The notes below the pieces were generated by a model. The model worked only from the letters and a program-made list of their open reading frames with translations. It had not been told where the DNA came from and searched no databases. This document shows positions 16,969 to 26,679 of a stretch of DNA of 64,000 nucleotides, piece by piece. Position 1 is the stretch's first letter; each line of letters starts with the position of its first letter. The stretch is taken from the NCBI GenBank assembly GCA_004022145.1, contig RCNU01000013.1, one strand, 5' to 3'. Made by a program: the position numbers and the translations under genes. The stretch is from Paecilomyces variotii. Its lineage: Eukaryota.

Positions 16969-18002
16969 ATGACTTCTGTTATCGAGCTCAAAGAGCGCAA
17001 CAAGGCTAACCGTCTCGCCCTCCGGAAGCTGGAAGCTCACGTTACTAGTCTCGAGAAATTCTCATTCCATCCAGCTAACCTGCAGAACGCCGCGATTAGC
17101 ATAATACCAGCCCCGTTCGAATGTCAGAATGGCAAACCCGAGTTCACTCCAAGTTTCTTTGCCCCCTACCCGAGTGATCTTCTGATGGCGCCCAAGGATG
17201 GATGGGTTCCGTTCGAGTTCCCCAAATACGACAGCGAACGGGCACAACGCCGTCATGAGACGCCCATCGACCGGGCGCGTCAACTTTGTTACTACCTCGA
17301 GCAGTCCCTGAGTGGGTACCGGAGTCGCTGTCCGGAAGTTCAATATCCCGTCTTTCTGATTTCGGGATGGCGCTATCAAGAGTATGTTTGACCTTCCCAT
17401 CTGCCGTCTCCTCGTGTCCTTTCTCTCATGGGTGTAATATAGCATCGGTGAGTATGGGTTTAAAAAAGACCTTTGGGAGTACGGTCTGCAGATCGGTATG
17501 GAAGATTCGAAGTGCCCTCCCCAGTGGACCGTCGACGCAGTTTACCATTACCACGACACAAAATTCCCGCATCTGAAGAGCATGATGATCTCTGATGTCG
17601 ATGGCGATTATGAGATGTTGTTCCGAGGGGAACTTCTCGCTTTGATCAGGATGATCCGGGGGCGTCTGGAGACAAAAAGATTTGCTAGATATCCTGTCCA
17701 CCCGGTAGGTTCCTACCTCACATAGACTCGGGGATAACCGTCTTGATCAGTCTTGATCTTTCCTGTAAAAAAAGCCGTCCTGCCAGGCCGCTCGTTGCTA
17801 ACTGCTTTTCGAACCATAGGTACTCCTCTTCTCCATGATGGGCACACAACACGCGCGGATCCTCCAGGCCCATTTCAATGGTACTGAGCTGGTTATCCAT
17901 CACAGCAAATTCTATGACTTCCGATACGAGGATGCTGTTCTCTTGGAGTTGTTTGCGCAGTGGTTTATCAGCTCTCCGGTAGGCGAGACTGAGCCGGAGT
18001 AA
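16969..18002 (+). CDS. Uncharacterised 3-exon protein (gene A); distant paralog of the gene at 28875-30122
   Basis: Introns 17382-17442 and 17705-17819 join an open frame ending VLLFSMMGTQHARILQAHFNGTELVIHHSKFYDF...SSPVGETEPE*. Confidence 0.75.
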
Positions 18003-18416
18003 TGAGTTCTTACTTACTCGGTGGGATAACGGCATACCTGGGAGGCGTTTTGGTTGTGTCTTTTTTCGATAGGATATTATTTCGGTGGCTATAAGTTATA
18101 TGTATATCGCGACGGTATTGTTCTTCGCTTTCAGCCTCTTATTCTTTCTTTTTTGGATATACAGCAGCAAGGCCCCAGATAGGTACCTTCTACCCTTGCT
18201 ATTTATCTGACCCGAGTACCAGTTCCGCACCTAAAGTACCGCTGTGCATGCGGCATATGTTCCTATACCATACCCAAGCTCTGTAATCCCGGGTTGGGCG
18301 CTAAGGGTGTGGATATACTGTTAGATCTTAAGGCATCTAGGTATACCATAAAGTTTTAGTCGATATTAGCTCTAAATAGGCTCTTAAGCTTAAATCCTAT
18401 AATTTTTATATAAGTA

Positions 18417-18762
18417 CAGTAAAACCTGGATATAACGAATCATTTTAGCCAGGTAGTGTAATTCGTTGTATAGAGGATTCGTTATATAAAAAGTGGGTCT
18501 GTATTAGTAATATTGGTATGGGCAGTGAAATTTTCGAAAAAATTACCCTAATAGGAAATTGTCAATGAGGTAATCACTGACTAATAAGGTAAATTTGTAC
18601 CTTTGTATAACGAATTGTATAGAAAAGGCCTGAAAAAATTAACGAATTTCGTAGTAGGGAGGAATAACGAATTTTGTATAGGATTTTGATTTTGACACGG
18701 TTTCAAATTCGTTATGTCGAGGTATTCGTTATACCCGGGTTCGTTATAGCCAGGTTTTACTG
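18417..18762. mobile_element. 346-bp non-autonomous MITE, pogo/Tc1-mariner superfamily
   Basis: 23-bp TIRs CAGTAAAACCTGG(A/C)TATAACGAA with one mismatch, TA on both flanks (18415-16, 18763-64), repeated internal TAACGAAT/ATTCGTTA motifs, and no ORF. Confidence 0.92.
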
Positions 18763-18810
18763 TATTAATCTATTTAATAAGGGTATTAGGTATATATTTT
18801 ATTACTTATC

Positions 18811-20390
18811 ATAGTAGACCATCTGGATACGGTGTGCGGAAATGATCAAAACATTGGCCTTGCCTATATTTACTTCAATTTTCGGCGCTCTCACAAGCAG
18901 CGACTGGAAGATGTGCTCGAGAGTCTGCTGAAACAGTTGACTCAAGGACGACCATCTCTACTAGATCGGGTGAAGGCACTGTATCATCAGCACTATGAGG
19001 GCGGAAGACCAAGTGACTTTTCAAACGCCCTACAAACTGTTATCAGCGGGTACATGAAGGTATTCATCATCGTTGATGCGCTGGATGAATGCCAGTCGAC
19101 AGACAGGTCTCGTGACCGGCACCTGAAAATTTCGAACTTCAAGCCCGGTTTAACATTAGCTTCTTTGCCACGGCTCGATCTATACCAGGAATTAAGACGA
19201 GATTTGAAGGAATACCTTCTCTGGAGATTAGAGCGAGTCGTTATGACGCTGAGAAATACCTACAGGGCATTGTTGGTCGACTTCCGCGGTTTGTCTCACA
19301 GAATGCCAAACTGCAAGAAGAAATTATCCAGGTTATCACAGATGCGGTGGATGGGATGTAGGTTACTCTGGTCAATGGGGTCTTTGAACAAGCTAATTTA
19401 CCTTTAGGTTCTTTCGCGCTTGGCTCTCCATCTTGACTCATTAATCGGGAAACGGTCTCCTAAAACCACTCGAAACGCATTGAAGAGCCTTCCAACTGGG
19501 TTGCGCGCATATTATTTTGCGTACCGAGATGCCATAGAACGGATTCAGGGGCAGGTATCTGACCAAAAAGAGATGGCATTTCATGTGTTGTCGTGGATCA
19601 GTTGCGCCGAGCGACAGACGACAGCTTCAGGACTGCAACACGCACTTGCAGTCGAGGTTGGCGAACCAACCCTTGACAAGGATGATCTTCCTGAAGTAGA
19701 AGATATGATCTCTGTCTGCGCAGGATTGGTCGTGGTGGATGAACAAAGTGATACCTGATATGTTCGACTCGTTTACTATACAACACACAGGAATATTTCG
19801 AGAAAACAAACAGGCAAAGACTGGGTCGCCGATGCTCATCAAGAGATAGCTAAGATTTGCATCTCTCATTTATCACTTGATGACTTCAACGCCGGATTTT
19901 GCAGCACGGGTGAGGAGTTTGAAGCTCGTCAAGAACACTACCGATTGCAGTACTCTAAAGCAGCCCGTTACTGATGCAATCAATATTGATTCTGAACTTT
20001 CTGCAGAATCTACCAAAGGTTATTATTAAGTAATGCCTGTGGCTAGGGTCTGCTAGCTCGAAAAAACTACGGCAGGATCGGTTTCAGGGTTCACTACATC
20101 CAGGCACCGAAACAAATCACGGGCCATCATTTTGTGGCACACTTCGGCTTGGAATGTCTGACGCAGATGTTAATCGAGTGTGATGGTCGATTTGATAGAG
20201 AAGATGAGCGTGGTCGAACACCACTGTCATGGACAGCATTAAAGGGTGTCTCCTACTGAAGTATGGAACTGATCCTGACTCTAAGGATAATATTTATCAA
20301 ACACCTCTGGACAATCGCCGCAGACTTCGGTCATGAGGCTATAATCAAGCTCCTACTGGAGCACGGAGCTGACCCGGAAGCTAGGCGACT
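18811..20390 (+). pseudogene. NACHT-ankyrin (fungal NLR-like) pseudogene
   Basis: IGLAYIYFNFR, Walker B VFIIVDALDEC, LALHLDSL, LQHALAVE, ISVCAGLVVVDE, YYTTQEYF, then ankyrin remnants (RGRTPLSW; ADFGHEAIIKLLLEHGADPEAR). Frameshifts and stops are present, and no Walker A is readable. Confidence 0.85.
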
Positions 20391-21620
20391 CGGGCTTTAG
20401 CATGGATGAGACTAATCGAGATTCGAACCTTGGTTCGAGGCCTGAGCTTCGGAAACGCCAAACGCTAAGTATGTATAGCCGCTAAGGAACGCCTGGAGAA
20501 GTTGCAAGATCAAGATTGGACTTAGATCGCCCTTGTGGGAACTCAATTATTGATTCCTGCTGTACCAGAGCCAGTCCGGGATCCCACATTAACAAGCCAC
20601 CGAATTCTGCCCCTCCGACTAGTGAATTCCCGGATACTCGGGTTCGCAGGGATCGCCCATAGTTAATTGTTTGTCGGACCCAACAACAGAAGCGGGAATT
20701 TGGAATTTGTTGGGCTGCAGCGGTGTTGCGCCGTCCAACGTTCCGTGTTTTTCTGTCTTGACTCTGGGGTTTGATCTCTATTTGTATCGCAAGTTGCAGC
20801 CCCGAGTCCAGGGTACCCTATTATTCAAGAGAAGTGGACACTTTCAGTCTCACCTCTAGCACCAGATCTCCAGGGTCTAACTAGGTAAGAAATGTACGCA
20901 ATCGGAGACCCGGTTTCGTTTTTTCCAATAGATCCCTTGCAGCCTCGTCGGGGTCTCACGGAGATGGCTGAAGCTGACTATTCGCGTAACATAACTTTCA
21001 GCATTTGTTATCACGAACAATAAGAAAGTGCAAGTGCATTTTCTGAGCTCCGCTCTGACAATTGGAACGTATTATTAGTGAACTTCACGGCTGGCTGAAC
21101 ACGCTAGTTATACCCATCTTCTAGTTCTTCTGGGCTGGACCATATCCCGTCAGCTATGAACTGTTCACCGACTGCATGCTATTTCCGGCTCTATGGGGGC
21201 CTTTTACAATCTTGCTGATCTGTCTCTGACAGATACGAGCGTCCGTGTGCGCCCAACTGGCATCAGTCACTCCTGTCGTGGGACGCCTAATGGGCGTTGA
21301 CATTCCGTTGGCTTGGACTTTTATCTGTCACTATGCGCTTGTCCAAGGCTGAACACTCAACATGCCACATGGTACTCCGTACATCGTGCATGTAAGGCCG
21401 ACTCTCGGTCGATCACCTGTCTATGTAGACTAGCCACGAGCTGATAATACATAGGTCTTCCAAGTGGAGAGATGGGCCGACGACGGTGCCCACTATGGAT
21501 ATAGACGGCCGAAGGAGACTGGAAAGGTTCCCCCCTTGAGCTCATGTACATAAATCATGAAAGCCTTCCCGATCCTTTCGTTATTGACCTAAACGAAAGC
21601 TTCACGACATCGCCGCCGCA

Positions 21621-23580
21621 ATGGGTAACTCAGGGATCTCCGGCGGTATGCTGTTCCTGCTGTCTCTGCTCGGGCTCCTGCATTGGGTCCACGCCGTACC
21701 GACCCTGTCTGCGAATGTGTCTGCGACTGCACGAACCCCTGTGCAGTTTGCAATCACATTGACGCAGTCGGAGGTATACCATGATGGCTTCAAGAGGCCG
21801 GGTGGTATTTTGATGAATGGTCAATTCCCCGGTCCGATGTTGGAACTGCGTCAAGGAGATGATGTCGAATTCACGGTTTGGAATCTTCTGCCGTATGCGA
21901 CTACGGTTCATTTCCACGGTGGGTATTTTCACATTTCCACATGGTTGTCATGGTCGTGTGTAGAGCTCTGACGTTGCAAAAGGAATCGATCAGCTAGGTA
22001 CCCCGTGGTCCGATGGTGTGCCGGGTGTGTCGCAGAAAGGCATCCAGCCCGGAGAATTCTTCGTATACAAGTGGACAGCGACCCAGTATGGAAGCTACTT
22101 TTACCATGCACATGAAAGAAGCCATATTGAAGATGGCCTTGTTGGTCCTATATACATCAAGCCGGCCGACTCCGTGGAGAGGCCCTTTGCGCTGATCAGC
22201 AACGACTCAAACGAGCTCGAGGCCATGCGGAAGGCAGAGGAAAATACAAGACCACTTGTGCTAAGTGACTGGCGCCACTTGCCCTCCGAGCAGGTTTGGC
22301 AGGCAGAAGAAGCCACTGGGCTTGACGCATTCTGTGCCAGTTCGCTCTTGATCAACGGAAAGGGGTCCGTTAACTGCTTGTCGCGAGCGACAATTGATGA
22401 GTTTACATCTCCTGCGCTGAAACAGCTGCTTAATGGCACTCAGTTGACCGATATGGGGTGTGTACTGAACAGTTTTGTGGGGGTGTGAGTAAATCAAGCT
22501 GATTGAATTACGTCTAGATGCATTCCTCCAACTATCGTCGCTACTCAAGGCCCATACCCGCATAACTTCAGTGCTATACCACCTGGTCTATTCTCTGGTT
22601 GTGAACCTACGGAAGGCAGTACGGAGATTCTTACTGTTGATCCCCATGATGGTTATGTAAGCTGGGATCTTATCGGAGCGAACAGTCTGTTGAATATTGC
22701 CTTCTCCATCGACGAACACCCTATGTACATATATGCCGTCGATGGTCGATACGTCGAGCCGCAGCTCGTGGACGCTGTGACAATCACGAATGGTCGACGA
22801 TTCTCGGTGCTCGTGAAGTTGGACAAGCCGGCTGGAGACTACACAGTCCGTTTTGTTGTCAATGGTCTCAGCCAAATGATGAATGGCAGCGCTATCCTGA
22901 CGTACGTCAACGCAGTGAAAACACAGAGCGGACCGTCTGAGCCATACATCAATCTCGTCGGATCCAATGCCACTGCAGACGTCACTTTCCAGAACGAGTC
23001 TGCGATGGTTCCCTTCCCTGTCGAGACACCTGCACAGACCGCTGATCAAACCTTCATCCTGAGTCTCAATCACTACAATGCTTCATATCGCTGGACACTC
23101 GGAAACAGCAGCTACCCGCTATCTTTGGAGGAATCGCAACCACTCCTCTTCTACCCAGACTCCCCAGCAGCTTACAATGACCTGACCATCCGCACCAAGA
23201 ACGGCACCTGGGTCGATTTCATCTTCAATGTGACCGGGCCTGTCCAGCCTCCACACCCTATTCACAAGCATTCTAATAAATTCTTCCTTCTCGGGTCCGG
23301 AGAAGGTGCATGGACCTACGCCTCCGTCAGTGAGGCAATGCAGCACATCCCGCACAGTCTGAACCTCAAAAACCCGCCTTTGCTAGACACATCTTACACA
23401 CCCGCTGCGGCGACGGGACCAACATGGATGGCGATCCGCTACCAGGTAACGAACCCCGGTGCATTCCTCATGCATTGCCACATCCAAGTGCATCAGAGCG
23501 GCGGGATGGCTCTTGCGATCCTGGACGGTGTAGACGCATGGCCGACTATACCGCTTGAATATCAACTTCATTCGTTGTAA
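21621..23580 (+). CDS. Secreted multicopper oxidase / laccase (resembles the pigment-type Abr2/yA group)
   Basis: Hydrophobic signal peptide; copper motifs TVHFHG, YFYHAH, HPIHKH and MHCHIQVHQSGGM (Met axial ligand); two introns. Confidence 0.92.
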
Positions 23581-25034
23581 AGATTTTTGAGCATCTAATT
23601 TCATTTCCTTCTTCTTTTTGGGTCTATATCTCTGCATTCACCACCTGCATTGACCTGTCGATACTCACTGCGAGTTTGGGTTCATGATAACTCATTTTGT
23701 TTTGGCGTACATCTCTTGAGAACATAATGGTATCTAATGAACTGCATTGTGACATTCCCATTTACGGTATGGATATAGCTATGTAACGTACAAAACCAGA
23801 TGATATATACTTAAGAATCCACGTCTATTATTGCGGATTGACTATGAATATATTTCTGCATGATAGCTCCAAACAGTAGATATTCCCATCTGACCTCTCG
23901 TTAACCCGGCATTCACGGCGCCGCAGTATGATTCGAGGGTCCCATAATACCAACTATTCACCGTTCTATTCATTGTTTGGCACCTCTCGAGTCTTGTTCA
24001 ATCGATCCGCTCTCTTTACCCCTCTTCCATCTTCTAGCTGCTCTTTATTCTATTTGATTTCTTCTTCCACACTCTGTACGTAGAAGAGAACATCTGTTAG
24101 AAACATTACTCGCGCTCAGAGAATTTATAAGACTGAATTTGACACTCTTGCTAATAGGAAGATACGAAGGATATCTTCTTCACGAGAGACACAACACCAA
24201 GTAAGAATCTATCCCTTATATCGTTGATACTAGCTAATTTAAGAAAAATAGAGAAAACATGGTTAAAGCTGCAAGTATACTTTAACTGTAATCTTTATAA
24301 TGCCTATAAGTATAGCATACTTGTTGGTATTGCGACCAGCGTGGGCATATACATGCATCTGGTTGTTCGATTTGCTCGAACAGTAGGTGATCTGGCGTCG
24401 CTTGGTAAATAAAGAAGCTGTATAGTTAACTAGTAACCAAACAAAGCAGACAGATACAAGTCCTCTTTCTCGTCTCCCTACGCTCTTTATTTACTACTCT
24501 TTAACCTTCACTGCTCTTGAAGCTTCATTGCTTTTACAATATTAAAGAATCATTTTGCTCCAAGCCTGTCTCTCTTCAGCTAAAATCTCTTCTATCATGG
24601 CATTTGCTTTACAACAGCTCCAAGCCGATATTTCGGCCTATGGCCCCCCTGACCATATGATTCGCACCACTTCTTTGGTAAGTCTGGATCAAACGAGCCC
24701 AGATTCAAGGACTAATATGAGGCACTCGCTTATTAGTGACGACGAGATCCTCTCCTCCCGGTTCCAGTAGGTTCTGGCAAAAACACTGTACTTGACAGTA
24801 CTCGCAGATCAAAAACCTTCTATGTTTACACGGCCCAATGCCCCCTCCGCCTCGGAACAGCTATGCTTTTACAACAACTTGTATTTCATTTTCAACTACG
24901 TCGAAGCAGTTAAAACATCCCAACTTAAAACTCGATTATATTAGATTTTATAAAAAAAGGCACTTTATTTATGACGCCTCCTTAGACAGAAAGGGCGATA
25001 ATAATTAATTTCAAAATGAACAAAATGCCTATCT

Positions 25035-25074
25035 TGAATTTTTCCTTGTCAATATGAATTTTTCCTTGTCAATA
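25035..25074. repeat. Perfect 20-bp tandem duplication
   Basis: TGAATTTTTCCTTGTCAATA occurs twice in tandem. Confidence 0.9.
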
Positions 25075-25198
25075 TACAAAGACCTCAAGCTCACAAAAGG
25101 AAGTAAGTTTCAAAACCTCGACGAATCTTTCCTATCATGGAAAAGACGTAGATATACTGATGTGATTCTCTGCTGAGTAAGAATCCCTTTCCAAAAAC

Positions 25199-25931
25199 AT
25201 GGAAGATCTGAACTTGACCAGCGCGCGTTTGAAAAAAAAAAAAAAAGGAATACTTCCTCCAAGAAAGTCCGAGATGGTTACGAATGAAAGTCTTTTGATT
25301 ACTTCAAACACGGCATCGCCTACGACAAATATCATTCGCCAGTTCATGTCCTATGTTGCAGACGGGGCACAAGGCTACTCAGAAAATGGCAAGATGTCGA
25401 GACGTACCGCGATTAATTATACTGCGTCGCTCTTCGGAGCAATATCTTACTGCAACAAGGGCCTTGATAAAGAGATCCAGCAACAAGTTCTGCTATGGAT
25501 CGAGAACATTCTGACTACAGAGTTAGAACTCAATAAGCGTTTGGTTATCTCGAAATCAACTGTTTATCGCGAGGACGTGTCATTGATAATACGAAACCTT
25601 TAACTATTCCCCGCTAGACATCCGCTGACTATTATCGATACGTGTTATTCTAGCTATTTGTATATTCATCAATTTGATGCTCGCTGCCTGCGGCAGAATA
25701 TACGAGATCACGTCGACAGAGAGGTATCCGAACCAGTACCTTCGATAAAAGGACTTAGATATTTACGCGTTCAATCGCAATGGAACCAATAGCCTCTTAG
25801 CGACTCTTAGGGTGTCTGGCCTGAGATGGAAGGACCGGACAGAAAACTACCAGGAGTTTATTATGAATTTGTTGCCTGCTCACATGTGGCCGGAGGATAG
25901 CATTGGCTGTCATCATTTGGGTTATACCTGA
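25199..25931 (+). pseudogene. Degenerate tyrosine recombinase resembling a Starship captain (DUF3435-type), 3'-truncated
   Basis: Frame 1: SPTTNIIRQFMSYVADGAQG...QVLLWIENILTTELEL...TVYREDVSLIIRNL*. After a frameshift, from 25641: RVILAICIFINLMLAACGRIYEI...YPNQYLR*KDLDIYAF...EFIMNLLPAHMWPEDS. GRIYEI fits the box-I catalytic Arg motif. Confidence 0.72.
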
Positions 25932-26679
25932 AAAGTCGTGAAAAGAACAAGTGCCGAAAGATATGAATGCTGAAATGATCCAGGTCAAAATCAATACCTT
26001 TCATTTTACAACGTCCGCGCCAGAAGGCTCCGTAAGTATTCAAGCCCGCTGCGTCCAGCTTGGAAGAGGTGACGCTTTTTACTTATTTCAAATATGTGAG
26101 ACATTGATAATCAAAACACCCACTCAAGCGCACGAAAAAGCTCAATGTCTAGTGGCGTTGCAGAATTAGGAGGTATGTGCCCCATGGTCGAGGTAGATGC
26201 GTCTCTGCATGAACTGTTGGTCTGACGACTCCCCAGTTCGCAAGCATGCCCTCCTACCATCGACGCCTCGCCAGACTAGCACAGGCCCTTCGCGATGATT
26301 ACAGTCTTTACATTCGCCCATTCTTCCTGTTCGAAGATATCACGGGGGCAGTGAGTATAACATACGGGGAGATCGTGTCGATGTTGTTGGACAAGTTCTG
26401 GATGGAAAACTAGAGGCTGAGGCTTCATTTGGGCACAAGATTCACTTCGAATTACAATCCATGAGCTTTGCTCATCTAGAGCTTTCCCCAACCAACGCTG
26501 TAACAGTGAGATCTGACATACGACATACATACATTGAAGCTGGTGATAGTAGCAGTTTTCTCATCACGGTGGGATTCTGGGAGTAATAATCATCACTAAA
26601 TTTCCTCTATGAGAGTAGCTGTATTTGCATCGATAGACGTCCGGATTTGTTCGAAGTACTCGGTACTCAATTCACGAGG

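Follow-up and report, generated by a model that had tools for sequence, protein, structure and literature searches.

DUF3435 genes form a single clade of eukaryotic tyrosine recombinases, apart from the Cryptons, and lead the elements called Starships (Gluck-Thaler et al., 2022; PMC9156397). An R-K-H-R-Y catalytic pentad and variable indels in box 1 have been described for them (Urquhart et al., 2023, PMC10104507; Gluck-Thaler and Vogan, 2024, PMC11162782). Starship transposition has been demonstrated in Paecilomyces, the host genus of the DNA studied here (PMC10104507), and three accounts describe remnant Starships and pseudogenised captains as common (PMC10104507; PMC9156397; PMC11162782). 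One of them started from 10,771 predicted recombinase genes, discarded 2402 of these as fragmentary or pseudogenic and kept 8369, with many others described as possible pseudogenes (PMC11162782); another defines a degraded Starship by at least three matches to conserved accessory genes (DUF3723, ferric reductase, patatin-like and NLR; PMC9156397). Cryptons are fungal tyrosine recombinase elements too, as captains are eukaryotic tyrosine recombinases. DUF3435 repeats were first annotated as Cryptons, and the DUF3435 clade is placed as far from the Crypton enzymes as from the bacterial ones (PMC9156397).

Our analysis of a 64,000-nucleotide stretch of Paecilomyces variotii DNA (the window) places a pseudogene fragment of about 0.6 kb, some 200 codons, at 25304-25904 on the + strand. 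Judged by its alignments, it is very probably the dead, doubly truncated remnant of a captain-type DUF3435 recombinase gene, derived from such a gene and not a working member of the family. It is homologous to the Starship captains (PF11917; e.g. HhpA of HEPHAESTUS, from P. variotii), the likeness being at the family level, and it shares with them the Arg and Glu of box I as well as the L-x-W-x-D signature, in which a stop now replaces the W. Unlike them, it amounts to about 200 of roughly 800-1100 codons, is interrupted by a frameshift and two stops, and has neither the H/YxxR-Y part nor a surrounding element. As in the degraded Starships, decayed captain sequence persists in the chromosome, but the locus offers only one probable NLR pseudogene, and on the other side of the relic. 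The relic is an ordinary fossil, one more trace of Starship activity in a genus where remnants were already expected, and raises no new question by itself.

The homology was established with a read-through of the relic carrying X at the breaks (P0003), which was compared by phmmer with 1.84 billion representative proteins. This gave 40 matches at E ≤ 1e-3 (39 foreign proteins and the relic's own open reading frame, P0005), 12 at E ≤ 1e-10 and three at E ≤ 1e-30. The best foreign match, P0006 (384 aa), aligned in a single stretch with 47% identity and E = 1e-45 (query 46-241 against residues 99-295), and 30 of the 40 matches crossed the break region in a single alignment. A profile of 41 relatives, run against the window's 2816 six-frame pieces, recognised only three stop-to-stop pieces below E = 1, namely 25181-25600 (E = 3e-32), 25629-25745 (9e-12) and 25749-25928 (1e-11), and these are collinear on the profile (58-155, 166-203 and 205-258). 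On these comparisons the homology of the relic is genuine and far above chance. The idea that the resemblance is accidental, or that the relic belongs to an unrelated family, could draw on the lack of a direct Pfam match, but an E-value of 1e-45 among 1.84 billion proteins, three collinear significant pieces and the fact that no other family matches better make it next to impossible. Chance similarity as such is refuted by that E-value and the three collinear pieces.

The relic consists of two coding pieces in different frames. The first, 25304-25600 on the + strand in the frame of 25181, encodes the core-binding (N-terminal) part and corresponds to residues ~100-194 of P0006, which aligns with 25319-25600 in tblastn at 51% identity; against the 41-relative profile, residues 42-140 of the piece match positions 58-155 with E = 3e-32. 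The second, 25605-25904 on the + strand in the frame of 25605, contains box I of the catalytic domain and corresponds to P0006 residues 195-295 (tblastn, 25605-25904, 50% identity). Homology begins near 25304 on the first piece and ends after EDS (25904) on the second. Over 25181-25931 on the + strand, the frame of 25181 stays open for 140 codons before a TAA at 25601-03, and within it lies an ATG-to-TAA reading frame of 134 codons (25199-25603, with codons 25199-25600), the 134-aa fragment that had been noticed originally and that is now found again as a gene call with 100% identity (P0045, 134 aa). Two shorter calls, P0005 (109 aa) and P0046 (85 aa), are likewise 100% identical to the DNA, starting at 25274 and 25346 respectively and ending, like P0045, at 25600. 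We infer that these hypothetical proteins of 85-134 aa are artefacts of the relic and not genes. The short hypothetical-protein call is a dead captain piece, which annotation pipelines and tools for finding Starships would do well to mask.

The original prediction had followed the first fragment into another frame by a shift at about 25641, with TAA stops at 25601-03 and 25746-48, both taken to stand where Trp would fit. Its continuation reads as written (in the frame of 25629, LLSIRVILAICIFINLMLAACGRIYEITSTERYPNQYLR-stop-KDLDIYAF...LLPAHMWPEDS), and both stops are indeed TAA, but the shift has to be moved to 25601-25604 (+ strand), a junction of four extra bases with a net effect of +1. In the tblastn alignments of six relatives (P0006, P0007, P0013, P0023, P0037 and P0051), adjoining residues map to codons 25598-600 and 25605-07, the two codons on either side of the junction. 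The frame of 25605 reads YSPLDIR-stop-LLSIRVIL opposite FSPLGLRQVMSMRVLL in the closest relative, P0006, and a shift at 25601-04 scores 220.4 bits against the profile as compared with 212.7 bits for one at ~25641. Past 25604 the original frame scores -2.9 bits and has no similarity. A shift at ~25641 and a Trp at 25601-03 are both rejected on the tblastn alignments and the profile scores.

Of the two proposed Trp sites, therefore, the one at 25601-03 falls within the shift junction and is abandoned, and the one at 25746-25748 (+ strand) stands: this in-frame TAA replaces the near-invariant Trp of L-x-W-x-D, which is W in 31 of 32 relatives. To these we add a third lesion that had been missed, an in-frame TGA at 25626-25628 (+ strand), where the three closest relatives covering the site (P0006, P0007 and P0009) have Gln within LRQV; the aligned segments are LDIR-stop-LLSIR in the relic and LGLRQVMSMR. 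The relic is therefore broken three times, by a frameshift (25601-04, net +1) and by two in-frame stops, the TGA at 25626-28 and the TAA at 25746-48; either stop could stem from a C-to-T or a G-to-A change.

The TAA stops had been attributed to RIP-like G-to-A decay, and the composition of the relic gives this no support. RIP leaves a high TpA/ApT ratio, a low (CpA+TpG)/(ApC+GpT) ratio and a positive composite index, with thresholds of about 0.89, 1.03 and 0. The relic (25304-25904) has values of 0.84, 1.09 and -0.26, close to those of the whole window (0.73, 1.20 and -0.48), and bears no RIP signature. RIP is described as active in Paecilomyces (PMC10104507) and may have caused the decay of the relic.

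The catalytic landmarks fit a captain-like recombinase. The core of box I, R-I-Y-E, is encoded at 25695-25706 on the + strand, with R172 (codon 25695-97) and E175 matching columns that hold R in 32 and E in 34 of the 35 relatives. After box I the relic reads L-R-stop-K-D where the relatives show L-x-W-x-D. The box I motif and the L-x-W/Y-K-D region claimed to follow it were accordingly read correctly: R172 and E175 are kept and L-R-stop-K-D comes after them. From the usual box I pattern, R172 is a candidate for the catalytic Arg that comes first in the R-K-H-R-Y pentad, and this candidate is all that the relic retains of the pentad, two near-invariant Lys being now R and Q. Of the 20 columns that are best conserved over the span of the relic, 16 are intact, the losses being D168A, W189stop, K215R and K224Q.

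What is covered is the core-binding part and box I (residues about 100-295), and the gene has been lost on both sides of them. A tblastn search with 47 relatives found no further homologous piece in the window. Profiles of the first ~100 residues (N-terminal) and of the 330 residues past the relic (C-terminal, with the H/YxxR and the Tyr) found neither region among the 2816 six-frame pieces, the best E-value across both profiles being 1.7-1.8. The predicted truncation before the H/YxxR and the catalytic Tyr is borne out, tblastn and the C-terminal profile finding neither in the window. The view of the relic as the dead 5' end of a Starship fares worse: the element's 5' terminus is not recognisably preserved, because the gene's first ~100 codons are missing as well.

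The assignment to the DUF3435 family is made through intermediate homologues, because the relic itself has no Pfam match: scans of both pieces and both read-throughs gave nothing at E ≤ 10, DUF3435 included. The absence of a direct PF11917 match is explained by the part of the protein that survives, which spans the region ahead of the domain and about its first fifth. The DUF3435 match in the relatives begins at about residue 200-255, and the relic spans residues ~100-310; judged from P0006, it overlaps about profile positions 26-108 of 418. With the PF11917 gathering score at 25.8 bits, six of ten relatives scanned lie above the cut-off (P0011, P0027, P0034, P0044, P0025 and P0037; 48.6-93.8 bits; 547-1100 aa), two lie below it (P0006, 21.8 bits; P0040, 17.1 bits) and two have no match. 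Four further proteins were scanned, of which P0051 (87.6 bits) and P0049 (51.1 bits) are above and P0047 (16.3 bits) is below the cut-off, the fourth, the window's own reading frame, giving no match. Full-length relatives carrying DUF3435 measure about 950-1100 aa. Starship captains are grouped into 11 families by phylogeny of their core-binding and catalytic domains. The relic reaches the PF11917-positive proteins directly by phmmer, with E-values of 4.8e-14 (P0011), 5.8e-08 (P0025), 3.7e-07 (P0027), 1.8e-05 (P0034), 6.0e-05 (P0037) and 8.1e-04 (P0044); P0025 additionally matches Phage_integrase weakly (23.8 bits, below cut-off). A repaired peptide had been proposed as the check on DUF3435 membership, and the answer is divided: the peptide has no direct Pfam match at E ≤ 10, but strong homology runs through the intermediates. 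With box I kept and PF11917-positive relatives, the identification of the relic as a DUF3435-type, captain-like recombinase is upheld.

A 13-sequence profile compared with solved structures matched mostly C2H2 zinc fingers, by way of the C-terminal region of the long relatives, and one weak integrase (3nkh_A, E = 0.018), which is no independent proof of a recombinase fold. The C-terminal third of P0011, P0027, P0034 and P0044 is rich in Cys and His, and its profile resembles GLI/KLF C2H2 zinc fingers (E = 2e-5 to 1e-3); P0011 also has a weak Zap1_zf1 match.

The closest relatives of the relic, P0006 (384 aa), P0007 (273 aa) and P0047 (400 aa), at 46-66% identity, are all short and under the DUF3435 cut-off. 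P0047 (XP_028481949.1, from P. variotii) is the closest named one, 66% identical to the second piece along 87-90 residues. It is a paralogue from a different locus, begins at the position matching 25638 and extends across an H-A-F-R stretch with no counterpart in the window. Neither phmmer nor a word-indexed search for longer proteins found a full-length relative closer than 33% identity, and in the latter none of the 1279 candidates scored reached E ≤ 1e-3. The sub-lineage of the relic may survive solely as partial or decayed copies. A scan of metagenome contigs with P0006 matched 139 pattern stretches, none of which was confirmed.

To place the relic within the species we used a word search with 22600-32500, which listed 24 sequencing runs, all of them found through holding this DNA. 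The share of words was 0.95-1.00 in 20 of the 24 runs and at most 0.02 in the other four, and no run had the intermediate share expected of a strain without the interval but with its laccase and amidase ends. In all four runs compared over 20500-34000, one of which the window may come from, the contigs span the region with no joint. No base difference is listed for these four between 24933 and 26344, non-coding flanks included. An empty site was thus found neither as a joint (four runs) nor as an intermediate share (24 runs), all runs being of the same species, and the relic and its lesions look fixed within it.

The same comparison bears on the idea that the frame of 109-134 codons (25199 or 25274 to 25600) has been domesticated and is expressed as a stand-alone core-binding-domain protein. 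The 140 open codons, the available ATG codons, the retention of all six conserved columns in that part and the identity of the frame in the four strains or runs compared would be in keeping with it. The flanking non-coding DNA, however, is equally identical among strains, the homologue's start is absent, and the homology does not end with the frame but, as expected of a pseudogene, carries on in a shifted one that contains two stops, so that we consider such a protein very unlikely. With its 140 codons open and 16 of 20 conserved residues kept across the relic, the N-terminal piece could conceivably still have some residual function.

Two minor sequence features lie on the 5' side of the relic. 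A perfect 20-nt tandem duplication at 25035-25074, present as one copy in three of the four runs, is the only indel near the relic. A run of 15 A at 25232-25246, just 5' of the start of recombinase homology, was skipped as a repeat in the read comparison.

On the origin of the relic, we propose that a captain-type gene, alone or heading an element, would once have stood at, or been copied to, this position flanked by a laccase and an amidase gene, and that both its ends would then have been lost by deletion, followed by drift; what is left would do nothing today. A multicopper oxidase (laccase) gene lies to the left of the relic (21588-23580) and an amidase gene to the right (31168-33137), and between the relic and the amidase are two genes on the - strand without a Pfam family, gene 1 (26930-27901) and gene 2 (28875-30236). 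Gene 1 has just six sequence relatives, four from named Paecilomyces (P. variotii and P. lecythidis) and two unnamed, one being 90% identical and the others, paralogues included, about 50%. The sole longer-protein match of gene 2 is a P. variotii hypothetical protein with 100% identity. The rest of the window encodes a poly(A) polymerase, a fungal transcription factor, NDH2, a class II aldolase, HSP20, an ankyrin/CorA protein and a rhamnogalacturonase-like protein, and ten translations of intergenic reading frames from 24158-26901 gave nothing below E = 0.05.

A Starship is an insertion bounded by direct or terminal inverted repeats, with the captain as its first gene from the 5' end and an empty site to be seen in other genomes. 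The orientation here, a captain on the + strand with genes of this kind directly downstream, would suit a complete Starship that inserted at this site and became derelict, in which case the relic would be the last of its captain and genes 1 and 2, perhaps with the amidase and what lies beyond, its fixed cargo. The few relatives of gene 1, the single match of gene 2 to its own kind and the lack of a Pfam family for either point the same way, as does the G+C content of 0.40-0.46 across 24-27 kb, lower than in most of the window. Unannotated genes are described as enriched in Starship cargo (PMC11162782), and degraded elements with surviving cargo have been described (PMC9156397). Against this reading, DUF3723, ferric reductase (FRE) and patatin-like (PLP) genes were absent from the 42 open reading frame translations scanned, a set that short exons could escape, and the sole NLR-like sequence (18790-20259) is a probable pseudogene upstream of the relic, on the wrong side for cargo. 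Terminal inverted or direct repeats were sought over 23500-31500, where only two-copy matches of 14-31 nt (71-100% identity or complementarity) were found, which we judge to be of chance size. The window has no Rfam family and no tRNA, and hence no 5S rDNA or tRNA target. The 7.6 kb between laccase and amidase are half the smallest reported Starship, given as 15,020 bp (PMC11162782). The lost 5' part of the captain and the strain data, with neither a joint nor an intermediate-share run pointing to an empty site, also count against it. So do protein-atlas look-ups based on language-model features, in which genes 1 and 2 resemble unnamed hypothetical-protein clusters widespread in the Ascomycota. 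The suggestion that the genes to the right are stranded cargo is left unsupported by these searches, in which an empty site, terminal repeats, DUF3723, FRE and PLP all failed to appear. We therefore regard a derelict Starship at this locus as unlikely, and give the same low credence to its corollary that an ancient Starship has shrunk to a hull, namely the 7.6-kb interval or a larger region extending rightwards, that is fixed throughout the species, and that its unannotated genes, whose known relatives are Paecilomyces proteins wherever they are named, were retained by the host once the captain was destroyed. Were the neighbouring orphan genes retained cargo, they would offer an example of transposon cargo turning into ordinary genome, and a fixed Starship hull would amount to a datable cargo domestication in a species used as a Starship model.

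About as likely as an origin in a whole Starship is that there never was a complete element here and that a piece of a captain gene came in during the repair of a break, as filler, or was carried in by another small repeat. The missing gene ends, the sharp edges of homology (~25304 and ~25904) and the absence of other element parts nearby suit this origin; the analysis turned up neither a second copy nor a source copy or flanking repeat, though, and a full copy that lost both ends accounts for the same facts. We thus hold insertion of a mere fragment to be rather improbable too. The reading that we prefer is a captain-type gene truncated at both ends, which stood alone or headed an element.

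Gene 1 has some features of its own. Its product scores 0.76 by features against a cluster with a restriction-enzyme domain, too low a value to count, and ends with TDGAF...LAILEVKK, which resembles the D...E-x-K motif of PD-(D/E)XK nucleases. About 160 nt within the gene (27507-27673) have diverged extra copies in the genome, with a word depth of ~2x; they lie on contigs of their own that show 9-11 differences and 8 gap letters, which fits the paralogues of gene 1 at ~50% identity.

Across the laccase from the relic, an NLR-type gene at 18001-20259 (NPHP3_N/NACHT, winged helix and an ankyrin-like piece) is split into pieces in several frames, has an in-frame stop at 19405-07 and is probably a second pseudogene. 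The kilobase 18001-19000 is the only RIP-like one in the ~17-34 kb profiled, with a G+C content of 0.38, a TpA/ApT ratio of 1.16, a (CpA+TpG)/(ApC+GpT) ratio of 0.85 and a composite index of +0.31.
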